64,000 bases of DNA from Patescibacteria group bacterium (GCA_017992195.1 JAGOPC010000003.1:5127-69126), one strand, 5' to 3'. Counted from the stretch's first letter, positions 1 through 64,000 are shown. Numbers and translations are program-made. The notes: a model not told the origin generated them from the letters alone.

Positions 1-805
1 GATTAATTATATTCTCTTGGAAGTGCTTGCAATGAAGACAGAAGAGGTGAAAGCTCTCAAGCAGAAAAATAATATGCTGAATGAGAAGAATGCTGGGTTA
101 CAGCAGACACTTAATATTATAAGTCATGATCTAAAAACTCCATTTAACAATATCATCGCTACTCTGGGACTTATTAACTCTCCTAACTTTTCAGACACCG
201 ATCTGAAAGAATGTCTGGGGATGTTAAGTACTACTGCTGTGAACGCATCGGAGTTGTTGAAACATCTGGCAGAATGGGCTAACAGCAACAGTCAACTGAC
301 TCCTGCGCCAAAGAAATTTAATATGGCAGATCATGTAGATCAAGAGATTGGTTTATTGAATACTGGTGCTTTGGAGAAGCATATCAAACTGGAGAATGCT
401 ATAGAAAAAAATATAGAAATCACTGCTGACCCAAACATGGTGGACCTTATCGTGAGAAATCTTATCAACAACGCGATAAAATTTACCCCTAATGATGGTA
501 AAGAGAGCAAGAGAAAGATCATCGTATCTTCTCAGTATGCCGAAGGTGGTGAAAAAGACTTTCTTGAGATATCTGTTTCTGATAATGGCGTAGGAATGAG
601 TCCAGACGTTCAGCAAAAAATATTTGCCGGTACTCACTTCACCAGCAAAGGGACCAAAGGAGAAAAAGGGACAGGACTATGACTAGCTATGTGTAAGAAA
701 TTCGTAGAAAAACACGGATGAAAGATCTGGGTAGAAAGCGAGCCAGGAAAGTGAACTACGTTTACGTTTACACTGCCTTTGTCTTTGGCGGAGACTCACG
801 CATAA
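1..805 (+). CDS. Sensor histidine kinase, C-terminal part (5' end lies outside the window)
   Basis: H-box SHDLKTPF, N-box NLINNAIKF, G1 DNGVGM. ORF 17..682 continues in frame through TGA at 680, 719 and 752. These fall on conserved Gly (GTGL-G-LAM, KHG-G-KIWVES, PGK-G-TTFTF). The frame ends at TAA 803-805 and is open back to base 2. Confidence 0.85.
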
Positions 806-930
806 TGTTTATTATAAACAGGGGGCGCTTCAGAGAGTAGCAGAGCAGATTTTCAAATAATAATTTCTTTATGTTAATTTAACCCAAAATCGCTACACTG
901 GTGATAACTATTTTACCAGTTTTCTTTTGC

Positions 931-1503
931 ATGAAGAAATTAATTGTGACTGCTCATCCTAACTCGCATGGTTTCACCCACCAGATCGCACGCAGATTCA
1001 TCGAGGTTTCAGAAGAGAAAGGTCATGAGACCTTTCTGATGAATCTCTACGACCCTGAACGAAAGCAGGATTACTTAATGCTTGATGATCATGGCAAGCA
1101 AATGGGCGACGATAAGAGAGAGGCGATTCATGCAAAAATTACTCGAGCAGACGAACTCGTATTTGTCTTCCCGTTACGATGGTTCGATGCACCGGCAATC
1201 ATGAAAAATTGGTTTGACGTGAATGTTTCAACGGGCTTTGCATACCGTTTTAAAAAGGACTCCCTGCTTCCGCACAGATATCTGAAAGGAAAGAGTGCAA
1301 GAATTATTTTCACTGCATGATCACCGTGGTTTGTTATCCGGACGGCGGGCATCGGTATTTTGATTAATTGGGCTATTGCAAGATTGTATTACGTTGGCAT
1401 CATCTTAAAATCGTATACTGTTTTTGGCAAGGTGCCTCAAAAGAAAACACCGGAGGAGAGAGAAAAAATGCTTGCAAAAGTCGCAAATATAGCTAGAAGA
1501 TAG
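931..1503 (+). CDS. NAD(P)H-dependent oxidoreductase, flavodoxin-like fold (Flavodoxin_2 / KefF-YwrO-like)
   Basis: ATG at 931. MKKLIVTAHPNSHGFTH... is a typical N-terminus for this family. ORF 901..1320 reads through TGA 1318-1320 (IIFTA-G-SPW) to TAG 1501-1503. Confidence 0.6.
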
Positions 1504-1531
1504 GAGTTTTATCACTTATCTTTCTCTATCA

Positions 1532-1942
1532 ATGTTTAGATTTCATAAAGGGTGTTTCGGTACACTTATTTTACGTCTCGTTGTTGGCGCTATCTTCCTT
1601 CAGTGGGGGCTCGTCAAACTCATGATGAATGGCGACGCGATCAATGCGCTTATTAGCGGTACAGCGATCACACCTACATGGTTTTGGATCGCAGCAGTTG
1701 TTCAAACAGTAGGTGGAGTGCTTCTTATTCTCGGTCTCGCAACCCGCTTTGCGGCAGTTATCCTGGGGCTTCTTATGCTTATGATCCTCAACTCACAGGG
1801 GCGAACATTCGGACCAAGCCAGCTCGAATACCTTATGCTCGGTACTCTCGTTTCTCTCGTTTTCATGGGCGGCAAAAGATATAGCTTCGATCGTCTCATT
1901 TGCGGAAGTCGCTGTGAAACTGATCACAAACATACTCACTAA
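1532..1942 (+). CDS. DoxX-family membrane protein
   Basis: 136 aa with four hydrophobic helices and a DoxX-like pattern (RLVVGAIFLQWGLVKL ... GGVLLILGLATRFAA). Ends at TAA. Confidence 0.65.
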   Translation: MFRFHKGCFGTLILRLVVGAIFLQWGLVKLMMNGDAINALISGTAITPTWFWIAAVVQTVGGVLLILGLATRFAAVILGLLMLMILNSQGRTFGPSQLEYLMLGTLVSLVFMGGKRYSFDRLICGSRCETDHKHTH

Positions 1943-1971
1943 AAATTATTCATCCAATATTTTCATTCATT

Positions 1972-1998
1972 TCCCGTTCTCCCGAGCGGGATTTTTTT
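1972..1998 (+). terminator. Intrinsic terminator after the DoxX gene
   Basis: 8-bp stem TCCCGTTC/GAGCGGGA (one G.U), 4-nt loop, then T7. Confidence 0.7.
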
Positions 1999-3505: not shown

Positions 3506-5020
3506 ATGAAAATGGTGTTAACGAAGAGAGAGGAAGATTTTTCAGCGTGGTATAATGAGCTCGTAGAGCAGGCGCAGCTTGCGCAAGGTTCTGCCGTGCG
3601 TGGATGTATGGTGATCAGGCCGTATGGGTACGCGATTCGGGAGAACATGCAACAGACATTGGATAAGATGTTTAAGAAGACCGGCCATGTGAATGCGTAC
3701 TTTCCGTTGTTTATTCCGAAGTCGTTTTTCGCGAAAGAGGCGAAGCATGTCGATGGATTTGCGAAGGAGGCTGCGGTTGTGACTCATTACCGTTTGCGTA
3801 ATGACGGCAAAGGTGGGATCGAAGTTGATCCAGAAGCAAAGTTGGAAGAGGAGCTGATCATTCGCCCGACCTCAGAGACGATCATATGGAATACCTATAA
3901 GGATCGGATTCAGTCGTATCGCGATCTGCCATTGCTGATAAATCAGCGGGCAAATGTGGTCAGATGGGAGATGAGAACTCGTTTGTTTTTACGTACTGCA
4001 GAGTTTTTGTGGCAGGAAGGACATACGGCGCATGCGAGTGCTGAGGAGGCTATCGTTGAAGCGAAGAAGATGCGAAATGTCTATAAGGATTTCTTTGAAA
4101 ATTTCTTAGCACTCTCAGGAGTGCCTGGTGAAAAATCGGAAAATGAACGCTTTGCCGGAGCTGAAGTTACTTATACGATCGAGTGTTTTATGCAGGATGG
4201 AAAAGCGTTGCAGAATTGTACGTCGCACTATTTAGGACAGAATTTTGCTAAGGCGTTCGATGTTACATTTATGAATAAAGAAAATCAGTCGGAGTATGTC
4301 TATGCAACTTCGCGAGGAGTAAGTACACGTATGATGGGAGGTTTGATCATGTCACACTCAGACGATAAAGGATTGGTGTTGCCTCCTGCGATAGCTCCGA
4401 TCCATGTCGTTATCGTTCCTATCCGGAAGACAGAGGATGAGAAAGCGAGCGTACAGACATTTATTGACAAGAAAATTATGCCCCAGATACAGGCGGCGCA
4501 GTTCGTTGTGCATTCTGAATACCTTGGGGATGTGCAGATACCATTGAATGTGAAAATAGATCGGGACGATCAGAAAAGTCCAGGCTGGAAGTATAATCAG
4601 TATGAACTTCAGGGTGTACCGTTGCGCATCGCCGTCGGTCCAAGAGACGTTGCAAATGGCAGTGTCGAACTCGTTCGCAGAGATACCGGCGTGAAACATA
4701 GCATGACTATTATCGAGCTGCAGAAACATATCGACATCATGCTGCCGTCTATCCAGCAGGCGCTTCTCGAAAAAAACAAAGCGCTCAGAGAGCAAAATAC
4801 AGTCGTGCTCGACACGTATGATGAGTTTAAAAAAGCGCTTGATGAGGGCAAATTCGTTATGGCTCACCGAGATGGAACCGTCGCGACGGAGGAGCTTATC
4901 AAAGAGGAGACGAAAGGAACAATAAGATGTATACCAGTTGATGGCAAAGAGGAGAAAGGCGTTTGTATTCGTACAGGCGCACCGAGTAAGATGAGAGTGC
5001 TGTTTGCGAGAGCGTATTAA
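3506..5020 (+). CDS. proS: Prolyl-tRNA synthetase (archaeal/eukaryote-like class IIa type)
   Basis: 504-aa uninterrupted ORF with class II motifs, the block ...[27 protein letters not shown], and the C-terminal ...RCIP zinc-domain region. Five CGG/CGA codons fall on family-invariant Trp (see findings). Confidence 0.93.
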
Positions 5021-5671: not shown

Positions 5672-7294
5672 TTACTCGCCTTCGGCTATTATATAATTTT
5701 CTCCGCTCGCCTGATCAACGACACCATCATGCGTGATTCCTCTCATCACCTTTTTCAAAGGTTTATAACTAACCAATAATATCAAACCATTCATCACAAC
5801 TAACCAGATCGCTAACCATAGATAGTCGTTATAGGCAAATGGTCTTACATAATTTGTATACCACCATGCAGTTCCGGCAATTACGATCACCGATCCGATA
5901 AGGAGAGTGAAATACTTCCGTGAAAAAACGAGTGAAACGCGCTTCCACTTGGCAACAATTATTCAGCCAAGGAGATAGAGGAGCTCCATGAGCATCTGGG
6001 TCGCGATACCTCCGACGATGCCATATGTGGGGATCATGTAGATACCGACCGCCATGCCTATGATGACACCGATGGCGTTTACTTTGAGTAGGTGATTATT
6101 GAGACCAGTCGAGACGAACATGAAATTGTAGACCTGTTTGGCGAAGCTGAGGAGCATCGTTACGGCGAGCCGGGGCAGAATGAAATCCGAGCCAAACCCT
6201 CACGCGACAAACTGCGATAGGAACTCTTTTCAACTGACGAGATAGATGATGTTGCTATCGAATACCCGGAAGTTCGCTACAAAAACCATTCCTATTCGCA
6301 GGACAAAGAGTAGAAGACTTCCGTAGCTCTTACGTTTCAAGAGGTCTGAATATGCAGTCACCTTGTGGACGATACTGTTTCCTAGTGATGACGGAACTAT
6401 CAGTAATATCTCCATCAGTGCTGAGGCGACAGCCCGCATACCAACGTAGGCGAAGCCCGTGGCAGTGGGAAAGAAGATACCGAGCAGGATCATCACACCT
6501 AGTGTGTGCAAACTACTCAGACAATACGCCAGTCCATACTGCCGGTTATCTTTGATGATCTGCCAGGTAAATCACCAGTCGGGCTTCAAGCGCAGCTTAA
6601 TATATTTGTTACTTACTCTTCGGACATACCATCATTGCACGGCGGCGCTGGCCAATACAGAGCCAATCATTAGGAGAAACGCTCAAATAGAGTGGTTCGA
6701 TGCGACGCTGAAATCAGGATTCTTATAGAGCCAGACGATTCCGACTAATACAATAATTTGCATAATTCTTGCGAGCGACAAGCCGATGCTCACATGTTTC
6801 ATTCCCCGGAAAAGTTGAAGAGGAAGTTGTAGTATACCCGCGGCCATGAAGCTTGCCGAGAAGAGCATACCGAGCGGGAGTCCCCGGATAAGATATGGAT
6901 TGTTTGTATATGCAGGTATTAAGTACGCGATGATCAATGCTACGGCGTATACAATGGTGATAGTGACATACCTCGACATGACGAACTTGCCGTAGTAGCT
7001 TTCCATCTCGGTTTTGGCCGGTCCTTCAGGTGGCATCTCATGTTTATCGAGATTGAGTTTCATCTTATCCTTGAGGCTACCGAGTTTTTTGAGCGCGATC
7101 ACGTACAATCCGAAGTCCGCAAATGCAGACCGGATCGCAAAGTATTTCAAAATCGTCGAATAATCTCCGAATCTGAGAGGTCACAGGTATGGCGTCATTA
7201 ATTTAACAACGAGAAAACCTCCGATGGCGGAGATGATTCTTCCCAGGATCTGCCGAAAGGCGTCTTTGACTACGAGTTTATATGAGGATGTCAT
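5672..7294 (-). CDS. MOP-superfamily flippase (MurJ/Wzx-like polysaccharide/lipid II flippase)
   Basis: ORF pieces 6683..7150, 6230..6511, 5963..6157 and 5672..5890 are all in one frame and joined by TGA codons. ATG at 7294, TAA at 5672. About 540 aa, polytopic, with an N-terminus MTSSYKLVVKDAFRQILGRIISAIGGFLVVKLMT typical of this family. Confidence 0.6.
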
Positions 7295-10593: not shown

Positions 10594-12543
10594 TTAGTTA
10601 GTAACTTTTGCTTCCACCTTCTTCAGCTCCTCATGATACTCATCAAGTAATTTCTTCATGAAGATCTCTGCATCGTGTGGCTCTTTCATGAAGCTTTCGA
10701 ACTCTTCTCTGGTGAGGTACTCTTTTTCGCTGAGTACCTTCGCCATCTTCTCCATCAGCTCTTTAGAGTCGAGGAGGATCGCTTTTGATTTTTGGTAAGC
10801 TGCGTTGATGAGTTCTTTTACTTTGAGATCGATCAGCTCAGCAGTCTTTTCTGAATATGGTTTAAACATCTCATACTCTCACATATTCTTGTTAATGTAG
10901 ACAACCTGTCCGAGCTCTTCGTCCATTCCATATTTGATGATCATATCAGTAGCGATCTTTGTCACTCTTTCAAAGTCGTTCGACGCTCCGGTTGTAATAT
11001 GTTTTTCTCCGAAGAAGATCTCTTCAGCAGCGCGTCCGCCGAGGAGTGAAACCATCTGGTCGAGGAATTTCGCCTTGCTGTATAAGTAGCTGTCTACTTC
11101 TGGCATCATCCAGGTAACACCAAGCGCCATACCACGTGATACGATAGAGATCTTTTCCACCGGATCAGACTCAGGCGTATGAAATGCAGTAACCGCATGT
11201 CCAAGTTCGTGGAACGCTATGATCTCTTTTTCTCTTCCCTGCAATGACTTGATCTTCTTCTCCGGTCACATGACCATCTTTTCGAGACCATAGTCGAGAT
11301 CTCTGTTCGTCATCACTATTCTATTTTCTTTCGCTGCTTTGAGAGCGGCTTCATTTAAAATATTTTCTATATCTGCTCCGACAAAACCACTTGTCTTACG
11401 AGCAAGGGCATCAAGATTAACACTCTTATCTATCTTCTTGTTCTTCAAGTGATACTTGATGATCAACACTCTCTCTTCGAGCGTCGGACGGTTTACCATC
11501 ACCTTACGGTCAAATCTTCCTGAACGGAGGAGCGCTGGATCTAAGGTATCAGGCCTATTTGTTGCTGCGATAACAATCAGACGAGTGCCTTGTTCAAATC
11601 CGTCCATTTCTGTCAATATCTGGTTGAGCGTCTGCTCCTGCTCCTGATGTCCGCCAGTGAAACCTGAGCCACGTCTCTTACCGATCGCATCGATCTCATC
11701 GATGAAGATGATCGCAGGAGCAGCAGCTTTTGCCTTATTGAAAAGCTCTCTGACCTTCGCAGCACCCATACCTACGAGCATTTCCATAAATTCAGAACCG
11801 CTCGCTGAGAAGAACGGCACATTCGCTTCGCCGGCAACAGCTCTCGCGAGTAATGTCTTTCCGCTTCCTGGCTCTCCGAAGAGGAGTACGCCTTTCGGTA
11901 CACGCGCACCGGCTTTTGAAAATTTATCAGGATTTTTCAGGAACTCAACAATCTCTACGAGCTCTTCTTTCACCTCGTCCATACCTGCAACATCTGAAAA
12001 TCTTGTCGTAATATCTTTCTTTGTCTTAAGTTTTCCTGCCTGGATGTTGAATGGCATACCACCTCATTTTGGTCCAAAGAATCTCAATAGGAAAAATGCG
12101 GCGATCAGGAAAAAGAGCAGCGGAAGAATATCTTCCATGAATATTTTTGATAATGTATTGCCTTCTTCTGTAGTCGCCGTAATAGGCGTACTTCCTGTAA
12201 GAGAAACACCGAGATCCTTCAGCGTCGTATTTTCCGGCTTCTCTGAGGTGAACACATTATAGTAGACTACGGGATAGTCGGCAGGAAAAAAGCTCCCTCC
12301 AGTCTTCTCCGACTTCTGGTAGCCTTCGATCAGGGTATCATTGATCACCGTCACCTTCTCGAACGTTCCGCTCTGATAGAGTGCAAGCCGCGCCGTCAGA
12401 TCACTAGCGCGAGTATTGTCGACCTTTGCGATAATTTTCTCTCCTTTCTCATCGGTGCTTATATCATAATTACTATTCACAAAATACAAAAGTGCTGTAA
12501 CAACTACGGCAAATATAATAAACCAACGTACTCCCTTTTTCAT
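10594..12543 (-). CDS. ftsH: ATP-dependent zinc metalloprotease FtsH
   Basis: Pieces 12064..12543, 11266..12057, 10879..11244 and 10594..10869 share one frame. The TGA at 12064-12066 gives ...FGPK-G-GGMPF. Walker A GEPGSGKT, SRH ...DPALLRSGRFDR, zinc motif HELGHA. TAA at 10594. Confidence 0.95.
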
Positions 12544-12640: not shown

Positions 12641-13579
12641 TTATTGGAATCGTGCCTTCTTTGCCTTATCAAGAAGATATCTTGTAGATCTTCACAATCC
12701 TGCTGAGCGATATCCTTTCAATGATTGACCTACACTGGCATCTTTCACTATAGATGTAATAGCTTTTTTTATCTGTTCCTGCATGATCGTTCTATCGTTA
12801 AATCTCGTTACTTCTCATGCTACCTCACGAAGATGGCTAGGAAGACTATAATAAAGATTCGCGGTCTCTCTTGGCTCAAATGTTTGTTGTATCTTATCGC
12901 CATTAAGTGCTTGAAGAATATCTTTTTTTGAGTTAATAATAGGTGCATAGATATTCTCAAATCCTTCCCGGCTCCCTTTCACGATTCTTCCTACTTTGTC
13001 TTTAGGTTCCCCTCTCAGCATTTTTCTGGAATCTCCCATATACGACAGGTTAGCAATCTTCATATAAAGATCCATCTTTGAGAACTCTTCTGGCAGGAAC
13101 AAGAGAGCAGTATTGACTGCACTATTTCGGTTATTTCTCATAGCCTCATCGATCTTTTCATTTTCCAGAATGGTCGCCATTGGCTTATGCGCTCTTCCTG
13201 CTACGTATAGATGCGATCGCTCATTGAGATCTCTGATCATATCATCTACTGAAATGACGCCATACTTTATCGTCTGTCCCTCGAATGGAACATAGGGATG
13301 ATAGTAGATCTTCGCACACGTTTCTTGTAATGCGTCGATGATCTCAAGCCCATGCTTCCTCGCATATTTTGAGTAATCATTCGCATTGTTTTCGAGATTT
13401 GCCTTATGCCACTCGTGCGTATTCTCTACCGGAAAAATTAAGTCTATCATATTCTTCTTACTGACATTTCACTCTTGAGTAAAAAGTCCTGAACCATATC
13501 CGTAAACTCCGTCCTTCCCTTTTTGCAAATTATACTTTGTCGTCAATATGTCCGGATCGAAAGATAGTTGTTTATTCAT
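12641..13579 (-). CDS. Tam41/Mmp37-type phosphatidate cytidylyltransferase (CDP-diacylglycerol synthase)
   Basis: ATG at 13579. Joined through TGA at 13469, 12815 and 12692. Tam41 hallmarks: GVYGYGSGLFTQ, DLIF.V....WH..NL, KYGVISVDDM, (W)SHLYVAGRAHKP, LSYMGDSR, EPKDKVGRIV. TAA at 12641. Confidence 0.75.
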
Positions 13580-17006: not shown

Positions 17007-17008
17007 AT

Positions 17009-26490: not shown

Positions 26491-26934
26491 CTAATAATGA
26501 TACTCCTTCCCTTCAATAATACTCTTACTCCTATAGACTTGCTCTAGCAGCGTGAGTTTTGCCAACCCATGCGGGAGGGTGATGTTTCAGAAAGCGATCT
26601 TGTTGTTTATGACGTTGTCGAGTTTTTCTTCATTAAGACCATAAGGTCAGCCGATGATGAAGGTGACAGTGTTTTCGTCCTGGACGATCTTGGTCATGTC
26701 TGGCGTGTCGCATTGTTTGCCGTCCTTGGATAGCAGGACTTTATAGTTTTGATCTTTTTGAAGCTTTTCGATGAGTTTATCGGTCTCTTTGTCGATGATC
26801 TGGTCGCGATTTCCGTTCTTTTCTGGTTTTACGGAAATAATCTCGAGATCTCTCCCCAGTCTTTTGACGTATTCTTCGATAGCTGTCGAGAAATGTTTGT
26901 CGCTATCGGAAATGCATAAAATCTTTATTTTCAT
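26491..26934 (-). CDS. rlmH: 23S rRNA (pseudouridine1915-N3)-methyltransferase RlmH (SPOUT)
   Basis: MKIKILCISDSDKHF..EEYVKRL. TFIIG-G-PYGL (TGA at 26647-26649). ...AF-G-NITLPHGLAKLTLLEQVYRS...YH. TAG at 26491. Confidence 0.85.
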
Positions 26935-38853: not shown

Positions 38854-38889
38854 GATAGTTCGATTTATTCCGTGAAAAGATCAGTAGAT

Positions 38890-49781: not shown

Positions 49782-52700
49782 TTAATACGACAGTAAGCTG
49801 CGAAGTCTTTCTATTCACATGGGATTCAACTGTCTTTCGATGTTTCCGATCTTCACCGTGTGTTCTCCTGGGTGATCTTTGATAACCTGTGCGATCGACT
49901 GAAACAGTCATGGGTTGTCGGGCAGCGCAAAGTGGAGCGGTCCGCCGATCTCTTCGTTGTTCATGTCGCTTGTTCCAATATTGCTTCATGAGGATTTCTC
50001 ATTATTTCAGCCTGTATCTGTATCTGAATCCTCATCTTCTTCGCTCAGTCCATCCGGGATCTTTTCAGTAAGCTCGATCTTGATCACCTCACCGGTTTCA
50101 GTATCGACAAGTTCGTCTTCGATGTCGGTTCCCATACTCAAAATATTCATTCAAAGTCTTGTCACCTTCACTTCACTTACTGACTCATCATTGTACTTAT
50201 TGGCTTTCTTCGCGTCTTCAACAACTTTCTCCAGAGAGGTCTTGACGATCTTGCTGACTTTAAGGGACTTATTTTTCCATCCTTCTATAATCAAAATATC
50301 AAACTTCTGAATATCCAGGGTCTCCTTCATAAATATTTCTATCTCGTCCGAGATATCTTCCACCGCCATAAAAAATCATTTCTTTTTTGCTCTCTGGATG
50401 TTCTTCACGTAGCAGAGGATTTTCACATTTCCAAATGGTTGCTCTTTATCGTAGTTCTTGAACATGCTGATCAATGAGAACGATCACTTGATGAACGGAT
50501 AGAGACCGTCAAATGGGTGACCTGAGACGAAGGTCTTGAAGACCTCGTATTCAGTCAGCAATCTTTCCATCTTAGAACTCTCTTCTGTTTTGTCCAGAGT
50601 GAGCGCGGGCTTGACCGCAGCCATGGCGAACAGGCTGTTTGCTGAGCTTTCCGCATTCGACATTTTGGTCCGGTCGATGATGCGGGACACATTATGCAAG
50701 ATCGTTTTACGATCCATGAAACCGTTGAATGCTCACGCTTTGGCAAGAGACTCGAGGGTCTTTTTGTTGATGATAGTTTGGCATCTTGTAAGAAAATCTT
50801 CGAGTGAAGTGTATGGTCAGTTTTTGCTTCTTTCGGTTTCGATGAGTTCGCTCACATCAGCACCGACTCCTTTAATACACTGGAAGCCGAGTCTGATAGT
50901 ATCGTCGACCGCGGCCACGTGCGAAAATGATTCGTTCACATGGGGAGGAAGAACCTTGTATCACTGGAGTTTTAATTCGTTAATGAATTTACTGAGTTTC
51001 TCAGTGTCTTCTTCCACAGACCTTAACAGCGCCGCATTAAACTCGATAGGGTAGTTCGCTTTGAGGTACGCTGTCTGATACGAGAGCATTCCATAGGTGA
51101 CTGAATGGGATTTGTTGAACGAGTAGAACGCTGCAGGTTCGATCATCTTCTCGTAGACCCACGTTGAGGTCTCCGCCTTGTACTCTCTGAAGGTAGCAGC
51201 CTTTTCGATGAACTGTCATTTGATCTGTTCGATGACCTCTTTAATTTTCTTTCCGATACCACGTCTGAGATTGTCCGCTTCGGCGAGCGAGAATCCGGCC
51301 ATCGCCTGTACGAGGAACATCAGCTGCTCCTGGTAGACGGCGATACCATACGTCAGTCCCAGGATCGGATCGAGATCCTCTCTGAGTTTTCTTTTTTCAT
51401 CTTCCGCTGTCGCCTCATCGTACTTCGCAACTAATATTTGATAGAGCTCCGGCAGCATATATTCGATCGCCTCCTTGCCGTGCTTTCTGTCGATATATCT
51501 CGGAATGAACTCCATCGGTCCTGGACGGTAGAGCGCACCCATCGCTATGATATCGTTCACATTATTCGGTTTCAGTTTTACCAAGAAATTTCTAATACCA
51601 TCTCCTTCAAACTGAAATACTCCTGATGTATCTCCCTTCTGTAAAACTCTTTCAAAAGTGTTCTTGTCGTCGAGCGCTGGTTCAAACACCATCGTCGCAA
51701 AATAGTCGGCAAACAGTTTTGGCAATTTCTTTCCTGACTTGGCATATTTTGCTCTCACGATCTTCATCGTGTTCTTGATGAGCGTTAGCGTCCTAAGTCC
51801 CAGAAAGTCCATCTTCAGAAGACCGATATCTTCGAGATCGTGTCATTCATATTGCGTCACCAGCTCCTTATGCACTTCTTCAGCGCCGGCTTTCCCTTGC
51901 GGCTTAGGCGGATGCTGCACAGGAGTATAGTGTGTAATTACTTCAGGAGCGATGATGATTCCACACGCATGGACGCCAGTTCCTCTCACTGTTCCTTCAA
52001 GCTTGATCGCCTCATCAAATGTCTTTTTGAGGATCGGATCGTTCTCATAAAGGTTGCGTAAATCTTCAGTCGCCTTCATAGACTCTTCGATACTTTTTTC
52101 GTTGATGAGCGAAGCGATAAAGTTCGACCTGTCGAACGGTATACCCATGGTTCTCGCAACGTCCTTGAATGCAGCACGCGCAGCCATGGTCATATAAGTC
52201 CCTACGTGGGCAACTTTATCTTTTCCATATTTCAGCGATACATATTCAACTACTTTATCTCTCTGTACATCTTCAAAGTCGACGTCGATATCGGGCATCG
52301 ATACACGGGCAGGATTCAAGAATCTTTCAAATAGCAGGCCGTATGGAAACGGATCCACATCCGTAATGCGCACAAAATACGCCATCAGCGAACCAGCAAC
52401 CGAACCACGTCCTGGCCCCACCGCGATATTGTTCGCTTTCGACCGGTTGATGAAATCCTGTACGATCAGGAAGTAGGTATTATAACCCATCTCTTTCACC
52501 ACCTTCAACTCGTACTCCAGACGCTCAATATAGTCAGCCACAGAGATCTCACCGTGCATCACATTCTTGTTATTTTCAATCAATTTCTTCTTGGTATCTG
52601 TATATGTTAATGTCGTGATCTCCTTCAACTCTGCAGGCGTCGTCTCCGTCAACTTTTTCGTCAATTGCCCCTGATCCGTAATCTGCACCATCCTCAAAAT

Positions 52701-52787
52701 ATCCTCGTCGGACCATCTATCCAGATCGAGTCTTCTCTTCATTCCTGTATACGACAAATAGCGCAGCTCAAACTCAAAAATATCCAT
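49782..52787 (-). CDS. dnaE: DNA polymerase III alpha subunit, C-terminal fragment (palm/thumb/fingers, HhH, OB; about 1001 aa)
   Basis: Starts MDIFEFELRYLSYTGMKRRL. An in-frame TAA at 52818-52820 lies upstream. Pieces 51843..52787, 51216..51812, 50961..51146, 50484..50717 and 50151..50369 plus a tail share one frame. AVGPGRGSVAGS, SMPDIDVDF, FDFLGLRTLT-type block, NKSHS. TAA at 49782. Confidence 0.9.
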
Positions 52788-53909: not shown

Positions 53910-55835
53910 ATGGCAGACAAAAAACCGCAGGAGTATGACGCATCCCAGATTAAGGTTCTCGAAGGTTTGGAGCCGGTGAGACAGAGACCTGGTATGTATA
54001 TCGGTTCAACGGATATCAGAGGATTGCATCACTTAGTATATGAAATTGTTGATAATGGTGTTGACGAGGCTCTCGGTGGACACTGTAAAAATATTTCTCT
54101 TGTCCTCAAAAAAAATGGATGGGTCGTCGTAAAAGATGACGGACGTGGTATCCCAGTCGGTATTGTAGGAAAGACAGGGAAGTCAGGTGTTGAAACTATT
54201 CTTACAGTATTGCATGCCGGAGGTAAGTTTGAAAAAGGTGCATATAAAGTTTCGGGAGGTCTTCACGGTGTGGGTGCTTCAGTAGTGAACGCGCTTTCAA
54301 AAGATCTCAAGGCAACAGTCTATAAAGACGGGCAAGAACATGTTATCACCTTCAAACGCGGTGTTGCAACGGGACCACTTGCAGTCGTTGGTAAGACAGA
54401 CGTTCGTGGAACAACTATCGAGTTTCTTGCTGATGATACGATTTTCGAGACAACAAAATACGTCTATGAAACCCTCGCAACGAGAATGAAATACGCAGCG
54501 TATCTTACGCCAGGTGTGACATTCACTATTACTGAAGAAGCAACTGGTAGAGCAGAAAGATTCTACTATGAAGGCGGTATCAAGACATGGCTGAGAAATC
54601 TTGTTGATGATCAAAAGCCACTTTCAGCACTTCACTACATCAACAAAGAAGGAAATGACGCTCTCGTAGAGATCTCATTCCAGTATGTGAACTCAAGCAA
54701 CGATAATGTCTTATCGTTCGTTAACAATATTAATACGACAGACGCTGGTACGCACGTTGTTGGTTTCAAGAATGCGCTCGTCAGTGTGATCAATGAGATT
54801 GCAAAAGCGAAAGGAAAGATCGACGGTAAGATCGGTGAGTTCCAGCCTTCTGATATTATCGAAGGTCTCTATGCGATCGTGACAGTGAAGATCCCTGAGC
54901 CTCAGTTTGAAGGACAGACAAAGGGTAGACTTGGTAACAGTTATGTAAGAAAAGAAGTTGAAGATATCGTGACCGCCTACCTCAAGAAAAATTTTGCAGA
55001 GAACGAAGAGGAGTTCAATTCGATCCTTGAAAGAATTACTCTTTCAGCGAGAGCAAGACTTGCTGCTAAGTTCGCGCGTGAAACGGTTCTGAGAAAAAAT
55101 GTACTTGCCGGAGGAGTTCTCCCAGGTAAACTTTCTGACTGTTCAAGACGTGGAAAGAACGGTACGGAGATGTATATTGTCGAGGGAGATTCAGCGGGTG
55201 GTACAGCGAAACAAGGTCGTGATAGTGAATTCCAGGCGATCCTTCCACTCAAAGGTAAGATCCTCAATACTGAGCAGGCGATGGTACAGCGTATCATGGC
55301 AAACGATGAAGTGAAGGCGCTTATCACTGCTATCGGAGCTGGACTTAAGGATATGTACGATGAGGAAAAATTACGTTACGATAAGATCGTGATCATGACG
55401 GATGCCGACGTTGACGGTGCGCATATTAGAACATTGCTCTTAACATTCTTCTTCAGATATATGAGACCGCTCATCGAGAATGGTCACCTGTTCATCGCTG
55501 TGTCTCCTCTCTATAAGATAAAGCAAGGAAAGAAAGAGGAGTATATTTATCCGATGGATGTTGAAGGTGGTGAGCTTACACATGCGCTGAAGAAGGCGGG
55601 TTTCAAGACAGAAGAAAAATATGAGATCCAACGTTATAAGGGTCTTGGAGAAATGAATGCAGAACAGCTCTGGGATACGACAATGGATCCTGCTAAGAGA
55701 AAAATGCTTCAGGTTACTGTAGACGATGCAGAGGAGGCTGATAAATTATTCAGAATTCTTATGGGCGAAGATGTGATGAGTAGAAAGCATTTCATCCTCA
55801 CACATGCGAAGAATGTAAAAGATCTCGATATCTAA
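53910..55835 (+). CDS. gyrB: DNA gyrase subunit B
   Basis: 641-aa uninterrupted ORF. YDASQIKVLEGLEPVRQRPGMYIGST, ..GGLHGVGASVVNALS.., EGDSAGG, PLKGKILN, DADVDGAHI. I found no in-frame TGA, CGA or CGG. Confidence 0.96.
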   Translation: MADKKPQEYDASQIKVLEGLEPVRQRPGMYIGSTDIRGLHHLVYEIVDNGVDEALGGHCKNISLVLKKNGWVVVKDDGRGIPVGIVGKTGKSGVETILTVLHAGGKFEKGAYKVSGGLHGVGASVVNALSKDLKATVYKDGQEHVITFKRGVATGPLAVVGKTDVRGTTIEFLADDTIFETTKYVYETLATRMKYAAYLTPGVTFTITEEATGRAERFYYEGGIKTWLRNLVDDQKPLSALHYINKEGNDALVEISFQYVNSSNDNVLSFVNNINTTDAGTHVVGFKNALVSVINEIAKAKGKIDGKIGEFQPSDIIEGLYAIVTVKIPEPQFEGQTKGRLGNSYVRKEVEDIVTAYLKKNFAENEEEFNSILERITLSARARLAAKFARETVLRKNVLAGGVLPGKLSDCSRRGKNGTEMYIVEGDSAGGTAKQGRDSEFQAILPLKGKILNTEQAMVQRIMANDEVKALITAIGAGLKDMYDEEKLRYDKIVIMTDADVDGAHIRTLLLTFFFRYMRPLIENGHLFIAVSPLYKIKQGKKEEYIYPMDVEGGELTHALKKAGFKTEEKYEIQRYKGLGEMNAEQLWDTTMDPAKRKMLQVTVDDAEEADKLFRILMGEDVMSRKHFILTHAKNVKDLDI

Positions 55836-57001: not shown

Positions 57002-57922
57002 TTATTTTATCTGCTGGAAGGTCTCATAGAGCTGGGTGATCTCTTCAGGGCTTTCGTAGGCTGGGAAGAGAAGCTGATGTAATGGGATCTGAACGTCGAT
57101 CATATCAATCAGTTGCTGATTGTTGCTTATCCATTCATCGATCATTTTCCCCTCGTAGCCATTCTTTTCAAGTGTTTTCATGACCTCTTCCTCACTCATA
57201 ATATGCCACGCGCCTTCTTTCTTCTTTCTGCCATGCTCGTAGTATTGCTTGCCGTCTTTGATACAGGTCGCAATATCAAAGGCGTCTTTGTCATCCGGCG
57301 CTATATAGTGAAAGTTGTTGTCGACAAGACATGGGATGGATAATGTTTGAGAAAGAGAGAGAATACAGCTGTCGATTTTTTTGATGAGGGGAAGTTCAAT
57401 GTGGGATTGTGCGGTGATCTCAAAGAAAAATTGGCCGGTGGGGAAGTAGGTCGCATACATTCACATGAGTTCTTCGACTTTTTTAGGGTTTTCGCCCTGT
57501 TGGATGAGTCGCGAAAGGTAGCTGCAGTCGCCTCCCACTATGCCGATGAGGTTCTCCGATCTGTCTTTGATCTTTTCCAATGGGAGCGAGGCGATCGTCG
57601 TGGTCGAGAGCGTATGAGCTTCTGAAACTATCTCCAATAAGGCACGGTATCAATCGTAGTTCTTCGCGAGAAGGGTCATATAAAACCCCCTGTCTGTTTT
57701 GCCATCCTTGACGACGTGGGTGCAGAGATCGACGCCAATCAAAGGTTTCAAGCCTTCTTTCTTTGCTATTTCGTACTGCTGTATGCTGCCGTACATACCA
57801 TTGTAGTCGCAGATCGGCATAGTTTCCTGACCAAGTGATTTGATCTTTTTGGCAATTGCCTTCAGATTGCCGATCGCCTGTAAGAGCGAATAATGACTAT
57901 GTCAGTGGATGTGGTTGAACAT
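57002..57922 (-). CDS. dnaE: DNA polymerase III alpha subunit, N-terminal fragment (PHP domain; 306 aa)
   Basis: MFNHIH-G-HSHYSLLQAIG (TGA at 57902-57904), CDYNGMYG, LIGVDL, MTLLAKNYD-G-YRALL, ...NNFHYIAPDD.... Ends at a genuine TAA at 57002-57004. An in-frame TAG lies upstream of the ATG. Confidence 0.88.
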
Positions 57923-58083: not shown

Positions 58084-60399
58084 ATGAGAACTTCTAAGAT
58101 AGCCTTGATAGGCTCTATTGTGCTGATGGCATGCGGCCTTGGTTTTGCGCATGCCGACTGACGAAATCTTCCGGGTGTGCCGATCGTGACGCGTGCTCAG
58201 CGGTGAGCTGATGAGACGATGAAATATGCGGATCATTACGAATATGCGAAGCTGCAGGAGAGCTGGGAAGAGGCGAGAAAATATATAACTGCAGCTCAAA
58301 AGGAGCAACAGGAAGCCGAATCTGAGAAAAGTAGCATAGCACGCGACTATGCGTTGAAGAATTTTCCGAGTGATATTTTGCTTGACACGACCGTTGCTAC
58401 TGAAGACGGTAAGGCACTTCGGTGGAAACACGAGTATCAGCATCAGAAGACAAAAATTATCGTCCATCACACAGTAAATGATATGGATAAATTTCTGACG
58501 GAAAATAAGGTGGAGTGACTGCTGCAGTCGATCTATAAGCTCCACGCATTCGGTAATGGTCGGTGAGATGTCGGCTACAATTTCATTATCTCTCCCGGTG
58601 GCATTATTTACGAAGGAAGAAGTGGTGGTGAATGAGTTGTGGGTGCACACGCAACCCGGAATAATCAGCCAAGTATCGGTATAGCATTAATTTGAAATTT
58701 TAATAATGATAAGCCGACTGATGCGCAGATAAAGGCACTTACAAATCTCATTACAGCGTTAGCGGCAAAGTATAATATTGATCCGGAAAGTAAGGCTGAT
58801 TGGCACAAAAAAACTGCTGTCTATCCCTATGTCTCAACATTTCAAAACTATACAGTGGTTGGTCATAGAGATGTCGGTGCTACGGCCTGTCCGGGTGAAA
58901 ATCTCTATAAACTCTTGCCTGCGATCCGTGATCGTGTCGACATGAATCTGAAGTCGGGTTCATATATAGCGACAGCGAATGCCTCAACTCCTTCAAAAAA
59001 TTCCTCGAACCAGTCAACGAGCAACATGTCTTCAAGTTCTCCCTCTTTGCCTGTAACAAAACCAAATAACATTATCACGCTACCGACGGTCTACAATACG
59101 GTGAAGGATAGTTATGCAATCCGCGTGCGTACTAGTGATATAACTACGGCGCTACCGAGATGCGAGATCATCAAGTGAGAGGTCGCTCTGGCGGGGTGTG
59201 TGTACCGTTCAGGAGAGCTTATTATGTGAATTAGAAAAAAGAACAGCGTTGTCGTGCCATGAACCGTGCGAATTAAAGTAACCTCTCGTGGTAAGCAGAT
59301 TACCTATGCGATGGAGGTTTCATGGGATGGAGCAGCGAGAAGTCAAGGATCGACAACTTCGACTAAGCCTGCCGCCCTCAGTTCTCCATCGACTATTGGT
59401 ACAACGCAAGGTTTACCTTCTCTGCCTGTTGGTAATAATCCTGTACTTGAGGATCTCAAAAGGAAATTTTCCATCACTATCCCGGGTAACACTATCAAGA
59501 TAGCATTGCCGACAAGTAGTTCTGATGCGCCGATGCTCATGAAGAAAAACATGAGTGTGCTACTGTATAATGCTTCTATGCAATCGTCATCGCGGACGAT
59601 CGCCTGTAATGGAGGATGTTCTCTTTCTAATGCGCCGTTCTCTCGTGTGACAGTCAGCTTTTCAGACGGGTTGTTAAAGGTTCAGAAAAATGGTTTGGTC
59701 TGGAATGAATCTATGCTGACATTGATCGCAAGCTCAGGTTCAACTTTTACTATCACTGATGCGTTAACGCAAAAACAGTATGGCGTCTACAGAGGAAAAC
59801 TCGACATTCTGACGCAGCAGATCAAGAAGATTGATGGCAACTATGTGACCCAATACGCTCTGGTGAATACGCTGCCACTCGAGCAATATTTAGCAGGTAT
59901 TGCTGAGGCTTCTGATAGTCAGCCGATAGAGAAGACGAAAGTGCTCGCATTGCTGACGAAAGCCTACGCGCTTTACTATGCAGGAGGAAGTAGTTCACAC
60001 CCTTCTATCCCGAAGTGAGTTGTCTATAACTCGATCGATGATCCTCGTTTCTTCCAAAAATATGTAGGTGTCACGCGAGAGCAGAGATCAAAGAACCGAC
60101 CCGTTGCACTTGAAGCGACTAAAGACAAGTATGTCGTCTATAATGGTATTCTTCCTATATTGCCTTATTTCCACTGTTCTCCTGGATTTACTCGGTCTGC
60201 TCGTGAAAAACGGGGTTGGAACGATACTCCGTATCTACAATCTATCCTCGATGAAACCGCTTCTGCGTGTACCAATTTTGAATGACATGGTGTAGGCTTG
60301 AGCGGTGAGGGCGCCAACAAAAAAGCAGAAAAAGGTGAAAGCGCAGAGGCGATAATTGCCTACTACTATCCCGGGACAGTAGTGCAGACGATTAGATAG
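58084..60399 (+). CDS. Secreted/lipid-anchored fusion protein: N-acetylmuramoyl-L-alanine amidase (Amidase_2/PGRP) plus SpoIID-type lytic transglycosylase domain
   Basis: Signal sequence MRTSKIALIGSIVLMACG. Amidase_2 region: RAQ(CGG)GA, IIVHHT, GNG(CGG)GDVGYNFIISPGGIIYEGRSGG, VGHRDVGATACPG. A Ser/Thr-rich linker follows. SpoIID region: EQYLAGIAEA, YVVYNG..LPYFHCSPGFT.SA.EK.GWNDTPYLQS, GHGVGLS. Pieces 58219.., 58855.. and 59266..60018 plus a tail share one frame through about 11 TGA codons. TAG at 60397-60399. Confidence 0.75.
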
Positions 60400-60449: not shown

Positions 60450-62276
60450 ATGAAAGATCTTAAAGAACTTCTAGAACAAATAGATCTTATATGAGGATCT
60501 GATACTCTTAATGCGGTGAAGCGCGCTAAGAGAGATTTTTCGAAGAAGCATAATATTGCTGATATACCGAGTAATGTAGATCTGTTGAAGTATTATCGTC
60601 AACTTGTGTCGAGTGGTGTCTACTCTCAGAGTAAGCATCTGGAGACGCTTTTGAAGAAAAGAGGGATTCGCTCCGATTCGTGAATAGTACCTATCCAGGT
60701 TTTGACAAAGCCATTCCGGTGTCCGGGCAAGTGTATTTTCTGCCCGAACGATGCAACGATGCCAAAGAGTTATATCAACACAGAACCTGGCGCTATGCGT
60801 GCATTGCTCAATCAGTTCGATCCATACAAACAAGCATATAACAGATTGCTCTCATTGCATCTGACCGGTCATGCAACCGATAAGATCGAAATGATTGTAT
60901 TAGGCGGTACGTGGGATGTTTATCCGAATGATTATAAGAGAGATTTCTTAAAGGGTTTATATGATGCATGTAATACGTTTGATCAGTTTCTAGAAAAGTA
61001 CGAGCAGTTCAACGTGCGTGGTGGAAGCTATGATCTTGCTGCATTAGAAATATCTTATCCTGCGACGATCGAAGAGTCGATGGAGATCAATGAGACTGCT
61101 GAGCATCGTGTGATCGGATTAACGATCGAGACGAGACCTGAATACATGACTGATGAGAACTGTCAGATGCGACGTAGTCGATGAGTGACGCGTCTGGAGA
61201 TGGGCTTACAGTCTATGTTTGACGATGTGCTCGATGCTAATAAACGCTGACATTCTGTCCAGCAAGCAAGAGAGGCGATGCATAAGATGCGTCAGTATGG
61301 TTTCAAATTTTCTGTCCACTTCATGCCGGGACTGTATGGTTCTACGGTCGAAAAAGATATTGAGTCATTCAAACTTGCCTATGCAGATCCATATATTAAG
61401 CCGGACGAAATAAAGTTCTATCCGACGTCGGTTATTCCAAATACGGAGCTTTACGAGCTCTATCGCAAAGGAGAGTATGAGCCACTGAAAACAGAGGATA
61501 TCGTCGATATCATTCGCAAGGTGCAACTTGAGATCATTCCGCCATATACGAGGATCAAACGTCTGATCCGTGATATCCCATCAACGGAGATCGCCGCAGG
61601 AAGCAGCGTGACAAATCTGAGACAGCTGACAGAGATAGACTTACTGAGCGATCTTGCAAAGAGCGAAGCGATGAGAAAAGAGCTCTACGGAAGACTCTAT
61701 GAGAACGAACAGGTCTACTTATCATTAGACCAGTGGCTCGCAAATGATACGAAGAGAGCCGATATCCATGGCATGGAGACGATCATCGTCTGAACAGAGC
61801 CTCTTATTGGTCATGAGAGAAACTTTGTATCCCTCGACACCAGAGCTCGTGAAATCCGTAACAGAAAGAACAGACCGGAAGACGAGACAGTAAATCTCGT
61901 CATCAGAAAGTACGACTCATCTGTTGGTACAGAGTATTTCATCTCCTATGAAGATGAGCTTGGATATCTGTACGGATTCACAAGATTACTGCTGCCAAAA
62001 GAGGAGCACATTATGAATCGGGACGGATTATGAATCGGAACGGCGCTCATCAGAGAGCTTCACGTCTACGGCCAGGTAGCTAAGATTAACTCAACCGATG
62101 AGACGAAGACACAGCATAAGGGCTTCGGTTCAAGGCTGATGGAGACGGCTGAAAAGATCGCCACACATTACGGCTATAAGAAAGTGTCGGTTATTTCTTG
62201 AATATGAGTCAAAGAGTACTATAAGAAGATTGGTTATCACAAAGAGTGAACCTATATGCTTAAAAACCTTTCATAA
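60450..62276 (+). CDS. elp3: Elp3-type radical-SAM/GNAT tRNA-modification enzyme
   Basis: Pieces 60702..61184 and 61278..61793 plus flanks share one frame through about 11 TGA codons. FRCPGKCIFCPN cluster region, GVTRLEMGLQS, HFMPGLYGST, IKFYPTSVIPNTELY, C-terminal GNAT ...HKGFGSRLMETAEKIA. TAA at 62274-62276. Confidence 0.8.
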
Positions 62277-62479
62277 TGCTCACATTCTTCAAAGATTTTT
62301 TCGTCTATCCATTCACTTCGGCAAAAGAATCAAATAGATTCGGACAATTTCTTCAATTTATTGCTAAGGACTATCCGGCGTATTTCCGGGCGAAACCTAC
62401 GCTTCGACGCATATTGGTTATGCCTTTTTTGGCGATGCGTGTGATGATAAGAGGAAGCGTGGAAGAAATAAAGAGGTAA
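62276..62479 (+). CDS. Hypothetical small protein (67 aa)
   Basis: The ATG overlaps the elp3 stop (TAATG). No family recognised. Confidence 0.3.
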   Translation: MLTFFKDFFVYPFTSAKESNRFGQFLQFIAKDYPAYFRAKPTLRRILVMPFLAMRVMIRGSVEEIKR

Positions 62480-62541
62480 AGAGAGCAATAAGTAAAAGAT
62501 AATGAGCTTTTTTTTGATGAAGATTTTTCTATAATCAAGGT

Positions 62542-63444
62542 ATGATCTTAGGTAACAACAGCGTGCAGGAGACGATGCACGGATATATTCAAACGGTGAA
62601 GGCGGCAGGAGTAGTGTCTGCTCCTTTTATTATTTTTCATGGGCCGGATCATATTGGAAAGAGTTCGTTTGCGCAGGCATTGGCTCAGGAGCTCGTCGGA
62701 CCTTTTGGTTATAGAGATATTTTACTGGTGAGAGATATGTCCCAAATCATAGGGAAGAAGCACGCATTGAAAGTGGAAGCTGGTGAAAATATAGAGTATG
62801 ACGGTCAGATTTATGAAGATGTCGGCGCGAGAGAGATTCGTGAATGGATGTCAAAGACATCTGCCGGAGAGTATAAGGTCCTCATACTGGAAAATATTGA
62901 ACGCATGACAGTGAGTGCTGCGAACTCATTTCTGAAATATTTTGAAGAGCCCTTTGCGAAGACACAAATCATTGCGACAACGAGAAATAAGAGTGAGATC
63001 ATGGATACTATTTTGTCGCGCGCGTTGCTGATCGCGTTTAACTATGTTGGCGACGGAGAGGTGAAACGTCTGCTGCAGGAGACTTATCCTGACCTGGTAG
63101 ATGCGAAGCTCCATGCGTTGGTTGATCTGGCTGCGTGAAGACCATGATTTGTGCTGACGCTGATGGGAAGAGATAAGGAGATGATCGGTGATCTGCAGGA
63201 TAGCATCATGCGCTTTGTGGCGTTGCACAAGCAGGGAGCGCGCTTGTCGAGCGTATTCCGTTTGTTGGTTGAAATGCAAAAGAAAGGCTATATTGAAGTT
63301 TTTCTCGACACGCTTTTGTATCACTATGAACGTGAGGGAAACTATAAGATGATTAATGAGCTGATACAGACAAGAAAAAAACTTGACTATAATATCTCGG
63401 CAGAGAATGTCCTTTTTAGCTTCGCGCTCCATGACGTAGAGTAA
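62542..63444 (+). CDS. holB: DNA polymerase III delta' subunit (HolB)
   Basis: FHGPDHIGKSSFAQALAQEL, ILENIERMTVSAANSFLKYFEEP, TILSRA. Reads through TGA at 63136 and 63145 (LAA-G-RP-G-FVL) to TAA 63442-63444. Confidence 0.8.
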
Positions 63445-63445
63445 G

Positions 63446-63922
63446 ATGTTGGCAAAAAAATTGAAACTGACAGGTAAGGATGTACGCTTTTTGTTGCGTA
63501 AGAAACAGACCATCTACGGCAAGTGAATGGTTTTTCTTGTTTATCCGCAATATCCTGATAGAGCATATAATCAGCGAAGTTTACAGGTGACTACAAAGAT
63601 CGCAAAGTCGTCGGTGAAAAGAAATATGATAAAAAGACTCTTTTATCAGCAATTGGAAAAGGACCTTCCGGTAGAAAAAACATTGAATGAAAATTTTTAT
63701 AAGATCTTTGTCTACTTCCATAAGGCGATGCCGGAAGAACTGGCAAAGCTGCTTGCAAATACTGACAAAAATACTATAAAGAACCAAATAATCGCTCAGT
63801 TTCACGAGCACTTTATATCATTTCCTGATCTTGTATGTCGCTTTTCGGATTTTTCAAAAACGTCAGTACAGCCATCCAGAAGAAAACCCATCGCTTGAAA
63901 GTCGCTAAGAAAAAAGAGTTAG
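63446..63922 (+). CDS. rnpA: Ribonuclease P protein component
   Basis: MLAKKLKLTGKDVRFLLRKK..., ...VTTKIAKSSVKRNMIKRLFY (the RNR/KR motif region). TGA at 63524 and 63896 read as Gly. TAG at 63920-63922. The 3' end is uncertain. Confidence 0.7.
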
Positions 63923-64000
63923 AAGAGATCGATCGTTTATATAGCGAGCTTGAAAAGAAAGATGCAGCACTTGCTCATGCGGAAGAGCACGCTTCGAAGC
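63835..64000 (+). CDS. Hypothetical protein, 5' part (continues beyond the window)
   Basis: ATG at 63835. MSLFGFFKNVSTAIQKKTHRLKVAKKKELEEIDRLYSELEKKD... is open to the window end and overlaps the rnpA tail. The identity is not assignable. Confidence 0.35.
   Translation, partial: MSLFGFFKNVSTAIQKKTHRLKVAKKKELEEIDRLYSELEKKDAALAHAEEHASK

Follow-up and report, generated by a model that had tools for sequence, protein, structure and literature searches.

The window considered here is the whole 64,000-nucleotide stretch of DNA from a Patescibacteria group bacterium (GCA_017992195.1, JAGOPC010000003.1:5127-69126), and the subject of the analysis is the genetic code in which its genes are written. 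The share of guanine and cytosine (GC) in the window is 42.8% (0.428). When TGA is read through, the number of stop-to-stop open reading frames (ORFs) of at least 300 amino acids in the whole window rises from 9 to 30, and the same read-through test gives 9 such ORFs for TAG and 15 for TAA. The residues placed in ORFs of at least 100 amino acids increase from 19,606 to 45,105 with TGA as a sense codon. Two gene maps were made: a conservative one, scored by codon usage, which holds 50 genes with 17,090 codons and covers 80% of the window, and a looser one of 70 ORFs, which covers 93%. In the conservative map, TGA is found in frame at 138 sites in 39 of the 50 genes, and TAA or TAG never occurs inside a gene. 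An earlier note on this DNA had stated that all but one of the frames re-joined across TGA end at TAA or TAG, and in the conservative map all genes do so (41 end at TAA, 9 at TAG and none otherwise). The genes from which the argument is built, together with those discussed alongside them, are the following.

2..805, plus strand: C-terminal part of a histidine kinase (HATPase_c), with TGA at 680, 719 and 752 in the G2-box region.
3506..5020, plus strand: proS, archaeal-type prolyl-tRNA synthetase (ProRS), with no TGA and 8 codons that are CGA or CGG (together CGR).
5672..7294, minus strand: polysaccharide-biosynthesis or flippase-like membrane protein, with 7 TGA, 2 CGA and 9 CGG.
10594..12543, minus strand: ftsH, an ATG-started ORF with 3 TGA, including that at 12064-12066 cited by the earlier note; Pfam AAA and Peptidase_M41.
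13686..14288, plus strand: rlmE/ftsJ rRNA methyltransferase, with 1 TGA and 2 CGA; Pfam FtsJ.
17743..19212, plus strand: der (EngA), with TGA at 17752, 17761, 19015 and 19135; MMR_HSR1.
21604..22947, minus strand: tig (trigger factor), with no TGA and no TGG; Pfam Trigger_N.
26491..26934, minus strand: rlmH, with TGA at 26647 and 26587, ending at TAG.
26984..28489, plus strand: obg, with TGA at 27029, 27098, 27128, 27350 and 27650; GTP1_OBG.
32479..34956, minus strand: class B penicillin-binding protein (PBP), with 7 TGA; Pfam Transpeptidase and PBP_dimer.
36136..37764, plus strand: hisS with a C-terminal NUDIX domain, 8 TGA and 3 CGG; Pfam tRNA-synt_His, HGTP_anticodon and NUDIX.
41968..43221, minus strand: murD-like Mur ligase, with 5 TGA, 1 CGA and 3 CGG; Pfam Mur_ligase_M and Mur_ligase_C.
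44075..46585, minus strand: gyrA, with TGA at 46352-46354, CGA at 46130 and CGG at 44810.
48618..49760, minus strand: transporter of the Trp/Tyr permease family, with 4 TGA, 6 CGA and 1 CGG; Pfam Trp_Tyr_perm.
49782..52787, minus strand: dnaE C-terminal gene (polymerase core), with 12 TGA and CGG at 52443 and 50670; Pfam match.
53910..55835, plus strand: gyrB, with no TGA among its codons and 61 glycine (Gly) codons.
57002..57922, minus strand: dnaE N-terminal gene (PHP domain only), with 3 TGA, including 57902-57904, and 1 CGA; Pfam PHP, positions 1-162 of 164.
58126..60399, plus strand: Amidase_2/SpoIID cell-wall hydrolase, with 11 TGA, 4 CGA and 7 CGG, ending at TAG; Pfam match.
60450..62276, plus strand: Elp3 (radical-SAM/GNAT), with 9 TGA, 2 CGA and 2 CGG; NCBIfam TIGR01211.

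The earlier note had taken the apparent fragmentation of these genes for an artefact of the genetic code, and both the ORF statistics and the Pfam coverage across the TGA codons bear this out. When TGA is translated as Gly, many of the window proteins match Pfam or NCBIfam profiles nearly from end to end. Near-full-length matches include the histidine kinase (HATPase_c, profile positions 2-110 of 111), FtsH, Der, Obg, RlmN, the class B PBP and the HisRS-NUDIX protein, as well as DnaB, MurD, GyrA, DnaE, HolB, Elp3 and Tam41. About 31 of the TGA-containing genes have support from Pfam, NCBIfam or Escherichia coli homology, and therefore the claim that at least 25 conserved genes are cut by TGA holds. 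The eight codons cited in its support are all TGA in the expected frame, although the dnaE one (57902-57904) lies on the minus strand, in the PHP-only ORF. It was also correct that gyrB (641 codons), proS (504) and tig (447) contain no TGA, and that a standard-code annotation is invalid, as table 11 breaks 39 of the 50 genes.

The amino acid meaning of TGA was assessed against E. coli K-12, with 14 orthologous loci aligned; close public homologues were set aside here, since they are themselves products of gene calling with table 4 or table 25. At 40 aligned window TGA codons, the E. coli residue is Gly in 21 cases, Ala in 6 and Ser in 3, which is the same residue profile as that of the ordinary Gly codons (Gly opposite 98 of 158 GGA, 98 of 143 GGT and 42 of 74 GGC). 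When all codons are put through a BLOSUM62 likelihood test, Gly is favored for TGA by 10^12 over the runner-up, and the other testable sense codons keep their standard meaning (58 of 58). Among the individual genes, Gly stands in E. coli FtsH at TGA 12064 and 11266, in GyrA and RlmE at the aligned TGA, in FtsI at three of five aligned sites of the class B PBP, in HisS at four of five, and in DnaE at three of five sites of the polymerase core. RlmH has Gly and Ser at its two sites. In der, the Walker A motif GxxxxGKS has TGA 17761 as its first Gly. Of the five obg sites, four are Gly in the Bacillus subtilis (1LNZ) and Thermus thermophilus (1UDX) proteins, as aligned from the PDB, and the fifth is in a variable column.

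The statement that TGA coincides with a family-conserved Gly in each case went too far: Gly is enriched, at the rate of ordinary GGN codons, and is not present at each site. E. coli has Ala, Gly and Asp at the three aligned der sites, with Ala at the first of the TGA codons for which a conserved Gly had been claimed, and Val at the cited dnaE codon. The obg codon at 27350 divides the comparison: E. coli has His, and B. subtilis and T. thermophilus have Gly.

A second line of evidence comes from two related genomes. The first, L001 (OZ246420.1, 292807-314723), has a GyrB 87% identical to that of the window and is fully syntenic with window 44-64 kb; the second, L011 (GCA_030429145.1), has a DnaE core 79% identical by BLASTP and is also syntenic. 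The alignments of the orthologues continue through every TGA to the C-termini in both. In L001, 51 of the window TGA codons are paired with GGN and 9 with TGA; in L011, the numbers are 42 and 13. Considering the E. coli orthologues, the codon exchange with the relatives and the Pfam scores given below, the assignment of UGA to Gly proposed in the earlier note is as firmly established as sequence data permit.

A second REASSIGNMENT, that of CGA and CGG from Arg to Trp, was overlooked by the earlier note. The first hint is found in the translation of proS, which shows Arg at invariant Trp residues of ProRS, e.g., in YAI-W-EN and NQ-W-ANVVRWE, where the codons are CGG or CGA. An exhaustive HMMER search gave 150 ProRS representatives, of which 76 that were full-length and at most 52% identical were retained; these distant homologues are presumably for the most part from standard-code organisms. 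An exact look-up of the proS protein gave no match on record among public assemblies. The conserved sites are as follows.

CGG 3638: Trp in 74 of 76 homologues.
CGG 3905: Trp in 62 of 76.
CGG 3947: Trp in 76 of 76.
CGA 4313: Trp in 70 of 76.
CGA 4868: Trp in 35 of 76, with Phe in a further 14.

Thus, five of the eight CGR codons of proS are in Trp-conserved columns and none is in an Arg column, and the CGT, CGC, AGA and AGG codons of the same gene are mostly in columns of Arg or Lys.

The codon exchange with the relatives follows the same pattern. The window CGA and CGG codons are matched in L001 by TGG (22), by CGA or CGG (11) and by Arg codons (1), and in L011 by TGG (32), CGA or CGG (13) and Arg codons (2). 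In L001 itself, genes likewise carry TGA in frame, and CGA and CGG likewise exchange with TGG. Of 48 CGR sites within genes, 44 have TGG, CGA or CGG in each relative with coverage of the site, and none has an Arg codon in both. Two apparent exchanges of CGA for AGA, at 53880 and 53904, were rejected, as they lie upstream of the true ATG of gyrB and thus outside the gene. In gyrA, L001 and L011 each have TGG at the two CGR sites; in the murD-like gene, all four are TGG or CGA in L011; and in the Amidase_2/SpoIID gene, 10 of 11 are TGG, CGA or CGG in the relatives. E. coli has Trp opposite CGG 52443 of the dnaE core and opposite one CGA of rlmE, the other rlmE CGA being aligned with Phe. All three Trp-type codons of tig are CGA or CGG. 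Per 10,000 codons, the window uses TGG 64 times, CGA 36 times (35.7) and CGG 37 times (37.4). On the evidence of the E. coli orthologues, the ProRS columns, the relatives and the likelihood test, CGU, CGC, AGA and AGG remain Arg. The amino acid meaning of UGA, CGA and CGG is shown by conservation in standard-code homologues, exchange with the two sister genomes and scores of profile hidden Markov models (HMMs).

The window is therefore read as part of a chromosome, dense in genes (80-93% coding), from an uncultured member of the Absconditabacterales (SR1; GTDB class JAEDAM01), in which UGA encodes Gly, CGA and CGG encode Trp, and only UAA and UAG are stops; the probability of this reading is put at about 0.9. 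The earlier note had placed the window in the recoded SR1/Gracilibacteria group of the Patescibacteria, or candidate phyla radiation (CPR). This is supported by the best 120 public homologues of the DnaE core, among which the named proteins all belong to Absconditabacterales, Absconditicoccaceae or SR1 and include the complete genome RAAC1_SR1_1. In GTDB, the users of table 25 are in the class JAEDAM01, which comprises Absconditabacterales and BD1-5. The code is already known: UGA was published in 2013 (table 25 for SR1 and Gracilibacteria; Campbell et al. 2013 and Rinke et al. 2013, as cited in PMC8629427), and CGA and CGG in 2021. Its surprise value is therefore low. Shulgina and Eddy (2021, eLife, PMC8629427) described for Absconditabacteria a code with UGA as Gly and with CGA and CGG as Trp, and found consistent tRNAs; later work takes this three-codon code as established. 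The window has the same three reassignments, with CGU, CGC, AGA and AGG as Arg and with UAA and UAG as stops. According to the same authors, CPR bacteria have no tRNA-Arg(ACG) and depend on tRNA(UCG) and tRNA(CCG), which would explain the joint change of CGA and CGG.

Other known codes share only part of this pattern. The Trp meaning of CGG is also found in Anaerococcus and the RFN20 Bacilli (PMC8629427), but those lineages belong to an unrelated phylum, keep CGA as Arg and UGA as a stop, lack tRNA(UCG) and make extremely little use of CGG. NCBI table 4, used by Mycoplasmatales and several endosymbionts, likewise has UGA as a sense codon with an expected loss of release factor 2 (RF2), but reads it as Trp and not as Gly.

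Several observations weigh against the three-codon reading. Three of the eight CGR codons of proS (CGG 4424, CGG 4562 and CGA 4073) are in variable columns. E. coli has Arg at 3, Trp at 2 and Phe at 2 of 13 aligned CGR sites, a comparison that is underpowered, as even TGG is aligned with Trp at only 2 of 18 sites; therefore, the 76 ProRS homologues and the codon exchange with the relatives were relied upon instead. Scans for tRNA genes in the window and in the L001 and L011 loci found none. The genome nearest to the window, that of L001, is titled "uncultured Candidatus Peribacteria bacterium" at NCBI, and Peribacteria are not known to use table 25. The GC content of the window (0.43), with 0.49 at third codon positions (GC3), is above that of the reassigned clades in PMC8629427 (0.26-0.38), and its 37 CGG codons per 10,000 compare with fewer than 7 in all but one species there. 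Finally, sequence alone does not separate pure from mixed decoding of CGA and CGG.

The 36 CGA codons per 10,000 in the window stand beside values of less than 37 in PMC8629427, and the most advanced case there, GCA_002791215.1, the only one to which the window is comparable, has 30 and 24 against 35 for UGG. The window differs from the published Absconditabacteria picture only in degree. The notion that the Peribacteria label marks recoding beyond the known clade was rejected; since all the named homologues are Absconditabacterales, the label on OZ246420.1 is most likely a taxonomic mislabel.

Mixed decoding is the alternative that survives best, though it is improbable. In this scenario, UGA is Gly and the cell is in a transitional state in which competing tRNAs or mischarging give a mixture of Trp and Arg at CGA and CGG. 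The few CGR sites in variable columns would agree with it, and according to PMC8629427 only experiments can establish the matter. Ambiguous decoding is judged unlikely because the essential proS, dnaE, gyrA and rlmE make free use of CGR where Trp is invariant and structurally critical, and in proS no CGR occupies a conserved Arg column. Moreover, CGA and CGG account for 125 of the 17,090 codons (0.73%) and for 53% of the Trp codons; substantial misincorporation of Arg would be costly.

Less probable still is the code named in the earlier note, NCBI table 25 without further change, under which SR1 and Gracilibacteria are catalogued. It shares with the window UGA as Gly and termination only at UAA and UAG, but keeps CGA and CGG as Arg, so that the differences between Trp and Arg would be real substitutions. 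The three E. coli Arg residues mentioned above are in its favor. It does not account for CGR codons in ProRS columns where as many as 76 of the 76 distant homologues have Trp, nor for 54 exchanges of CGR with TGG against 3 with Arg codons in the two relatives, where CGT, CGC, AGA and AGG are exchanged among themselves and with Lys codons and almost never with CGA or CGG. The profile scores also improve with CGR as Trp instead of Arg: Polysacc_synt from 28.1 bits, just under its cutoff of 28.2, to 42.7 for the protein of 5672..7294, ProRS-C_1 from 72.0 to 81.3, tRNA-synt_2b from 72.1 to 76.5, Trp_Tyr_perm from 59.0 to 66.3 and DUF6629 from 79.0 to 84.5. With TGG as the only Trp codon, the Trp content would be an abnormal 0.64%, and it becomes a normal 1.38% when CGR is counted. 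The window uses the three-codon Absconditabacterales code and not plain table 25. The naming of table 25 was right as regards UGA and incomplete as regards CGA and CGG, and the re-translation with it that the earlier note recommended, although it yields near-full Pfam coverage, still writes Arg at 125 codons.

A code of the table 4 type, with UGA as Trp, is very improbable. It would explain why UGA is clearly a sense codon and why many public homologues have Trp at the window TGA columns. However, E. coli has Trp at none of the 40 aligned TGA sites, TGA is exchanged in the relatives with GGN and not with TGG, and reading TGA as Trp costs 8-14 bits in the Pfam scores (GTP1_OBG 162.8 bits against 176.3 with Gly, HATPase_c 95.8 against 109.6, and MMR_HSR1 of Der 145.7 against 154.2). 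The public Trp residues are what table-4 gene calling is expected to produce and are not independent evidence. At the window TGA columns, the best 120 public DnaE homologues are split between Gly and Trp, e.g., 82 Gly to 38 Trp in one column and 72 Trp to 48 Gly in another, which is due to calling with table 25 in some cases and table 4 in others. At the two CGG columns of the window's dnaE core, the split is about 1:1 (Trp 61 to Arg 59, and Arg 62 to Trp 53), because CGA and CGG have been written as Arg.

That the TGAs are real stops, in pseudogenes, through assembly or sequencing errors, or with selenocysteine or programmed read-through, has nothing in its favor beyond the standard-code reading and is just as improbable, given 138 in-frame TGA in 39 genes with never a TAA or TAG, profile coverage near full length across them, orthologues in two other genomes that hold the frame, and an Rfam scan of the window in which no family was matched, neither a selenocysteine insertion (SECIS) element nor any other.

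The public protein predictions for the clade are, then, mistranslated in two ways, with TGA as Trp and with CGA and CGG as Arg. For Absconditabacterales, such mistranslations distort alignments and HMMs as well as structure predictions and analyses of selection. The finding matters mainly for annotation, and it is worth flagging that table 25, too, leaves more than half of the Trp positions annotated as Arg.

Since no tRNA gene is present in the window or in the relatives' loci, the picture of the decoding machinery is drawn from the literature on the clade. UGA would be read by a tRNA-Gly whose anticodon is UCA (G1:C72, C2:G71, G3:C70, U73), with RF2 lost. CGA and CGG would be read by tRNAs with the anticodons UCG and CCG that bear Trp identity elements (G73, no A20), and CGU and CGC would be left to tRNA-Arg(GCG). 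No release factor is among the Pfam and NCBIfam matches of the window genes, and 64 kb cannot show the absence of prfB.

The direction of codon change was compared between window 38.8-64 kb and the two relatives. Changes from TGG in the relative to CGA or CGG in the window outnumber the reverse by 20:2 and 26:6, and the window has a GC3 of 0.49, where the relatives have 0.40-0.41. The exchanges between TGA and GGN are balanced (28:23 and 19:23). The excess of TGG-to-CGR changes is the pattern that synonymous drift under GC pressure would give. The reassigned codons already hold about half of the Trp positions in the lineage and are displacing UGG as GC3 rises. The window adds a relatively GC-rich member with a far-advanced reassignment of Arg codons to Trp, and this bears on the models of codon capture.

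Elp3, encoded at 60450..62276, is uncommon in bacteria. The window protein is a full-length bacterial form of this enzyme that modifies uridine 34 of tRNAs (TIGR01211, 503 bits, with the cutoff at 350), and its orthologue in L001 is 78% identical. It is speculative that this modification could keep tRNA-Gly(UCA) off UGG and affect the reading of CGA and CGG by tRNA(UCG). A wider and doubtful proposal would place the lineage in a rebound phase after codon capture, with CGR now at 53-58% of Trp positions, in which Elp3 might both keep tRNA-Gly(UCA) off UGG and tune the reading of CGA and CGG. If this is true, the clade would be a natural system for studying how the reassignment of a sense codon gets fixed and spreads. 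In a literature search on Elp3 and SR1-type clades, the top-ranked papers did not mention Elp3.

The use of TGA is uneven among the genes, as the earlier note had stated, but the heterogeneity is modest (chi-squared 68.8, 48 degrees of freedom, p about 0.03). TGA makes up 11.5% of the Gly codons overall. The main outlier is gyrB, with TGA at 0 of 61 Gly codons (P = 6e-4), and for gyrB, proS and tig together the count is 0 of 114 (P = 9e-7). The TGA share falls with a rising codon-bias score (rho = -0.43, p = 0.002), a correlation that is slightly circular, since the score itself contains TGA. Hairpins resembling terminators were scanned in 1-20 kb, where 28 are found against 14.7 +/- 4.5 expected from shuffled sequence, about a twofold excess. 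Strong hairpins follow the stops at 17006, 19212, 1942, 2409 and 15954; the claim that genes usually end before a hairpin terminator is accordingly true of several stops and not of most.

The alpha subunit of DNA polymerase III is encoded by two genes. The ORF labelled dnaE in the earlier note (57002-57922) does belong to it but encodes the PHP domain only, a protein of 306 amino acids that corresponds to residues about 6-291 of E. coli DnaE; the rest is a separate gene (49782-52787), whose product of about 1000 amino acids has the NTPase/palm, fingers and HhH domains and no PHP. The 4.2 kb between the halves, which share a strand, contain ruvA and gyrB, both on the other strand, as well as one unknown gene. 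A split intein was considered and rejected: the end of the N-terminal part and the start of the C-terminal part adjoin in E. coli positions, so that intein halves would not fit between them. L001 and L011 have the same two-gene arrangement. As the best 120 public homologues of the core all lack PHP as well, including that of RAAC1_SR1_1 (942 amino acids), the split looks clade-wide. A literature search for a split dnaE found no description of it.

Further genes of the window with an assigned product are listed below.

931..1503, plus strand: flavodoxin-like fold NAD(P)H oxidoreductase, with 1 TGA, 3 CGA and 1 CGG; Pfam Flavodoxin_2, positions 1-195 of 198.
12641..13579, minus strand: Tam41/Mmp37-type phosphatidate cytidylyltransferase, with 3 TGA, 3 CGA and 1 CGG; PF09139, E = 2.9e-81, positions 15-322 of 322.
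30219..31400, minus strand: rlmN, with 4 TGA and 2 CGA; Pfam Radical_SAM and RlmN_N, and an E. coli alignment.
31442..32455, minus strand: DHH/DHHA1 phosphoesterase (NrnA-like), with 4 TGA, 1 CGA and 2 CGG; Pfam DHH and DHHA1.
38872..40236, plus strand: dnaB replicative helicase, with 2-3 TGA; Pfam DnaB and DnaB_C (positions 2-254 of 255).
62542..63444, plus strand: holB (DNA polymerase III delta'), with 2 TGA; Pfam DNA_pol3_delta2.
63446..63922, plus strand: rnpA (RNase P protein), with 2 TGA and 1 CGA, ending at TAG; a weak match to Pfam Ribonuclease_P, with an orthologue in L001 that is 72% identical.

The Pfam family of the Tam41/Mmp37-type enzyme is described as a mitochondrial phosphatidate cytidylyltransferase, and its presence in a bacterium is unexpected. 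The NUDIX hydrolase domain of the hisS product covers residues about 414-531, and the NCBIfam score of this protein (256.8 bits) is under the equivalog cutoff of 286.75. Two adjacent minus-strand genes, 23028-23897 and 23997-24881, encode proteins of about 270-290 amino acids with clearly similar sequences, including the common motifs SLPNFYKIV and IIGDYIIEC. Their products have no Pfam match, one of the genes has 2-3 TGA and the other none, and they appear to be a tandem pair of paralogues. A small membrane protein encoded at 35134-35532 on the minus strand matches a pilin family of type IV secretion systems (PF18895, E = 4.6e-12).

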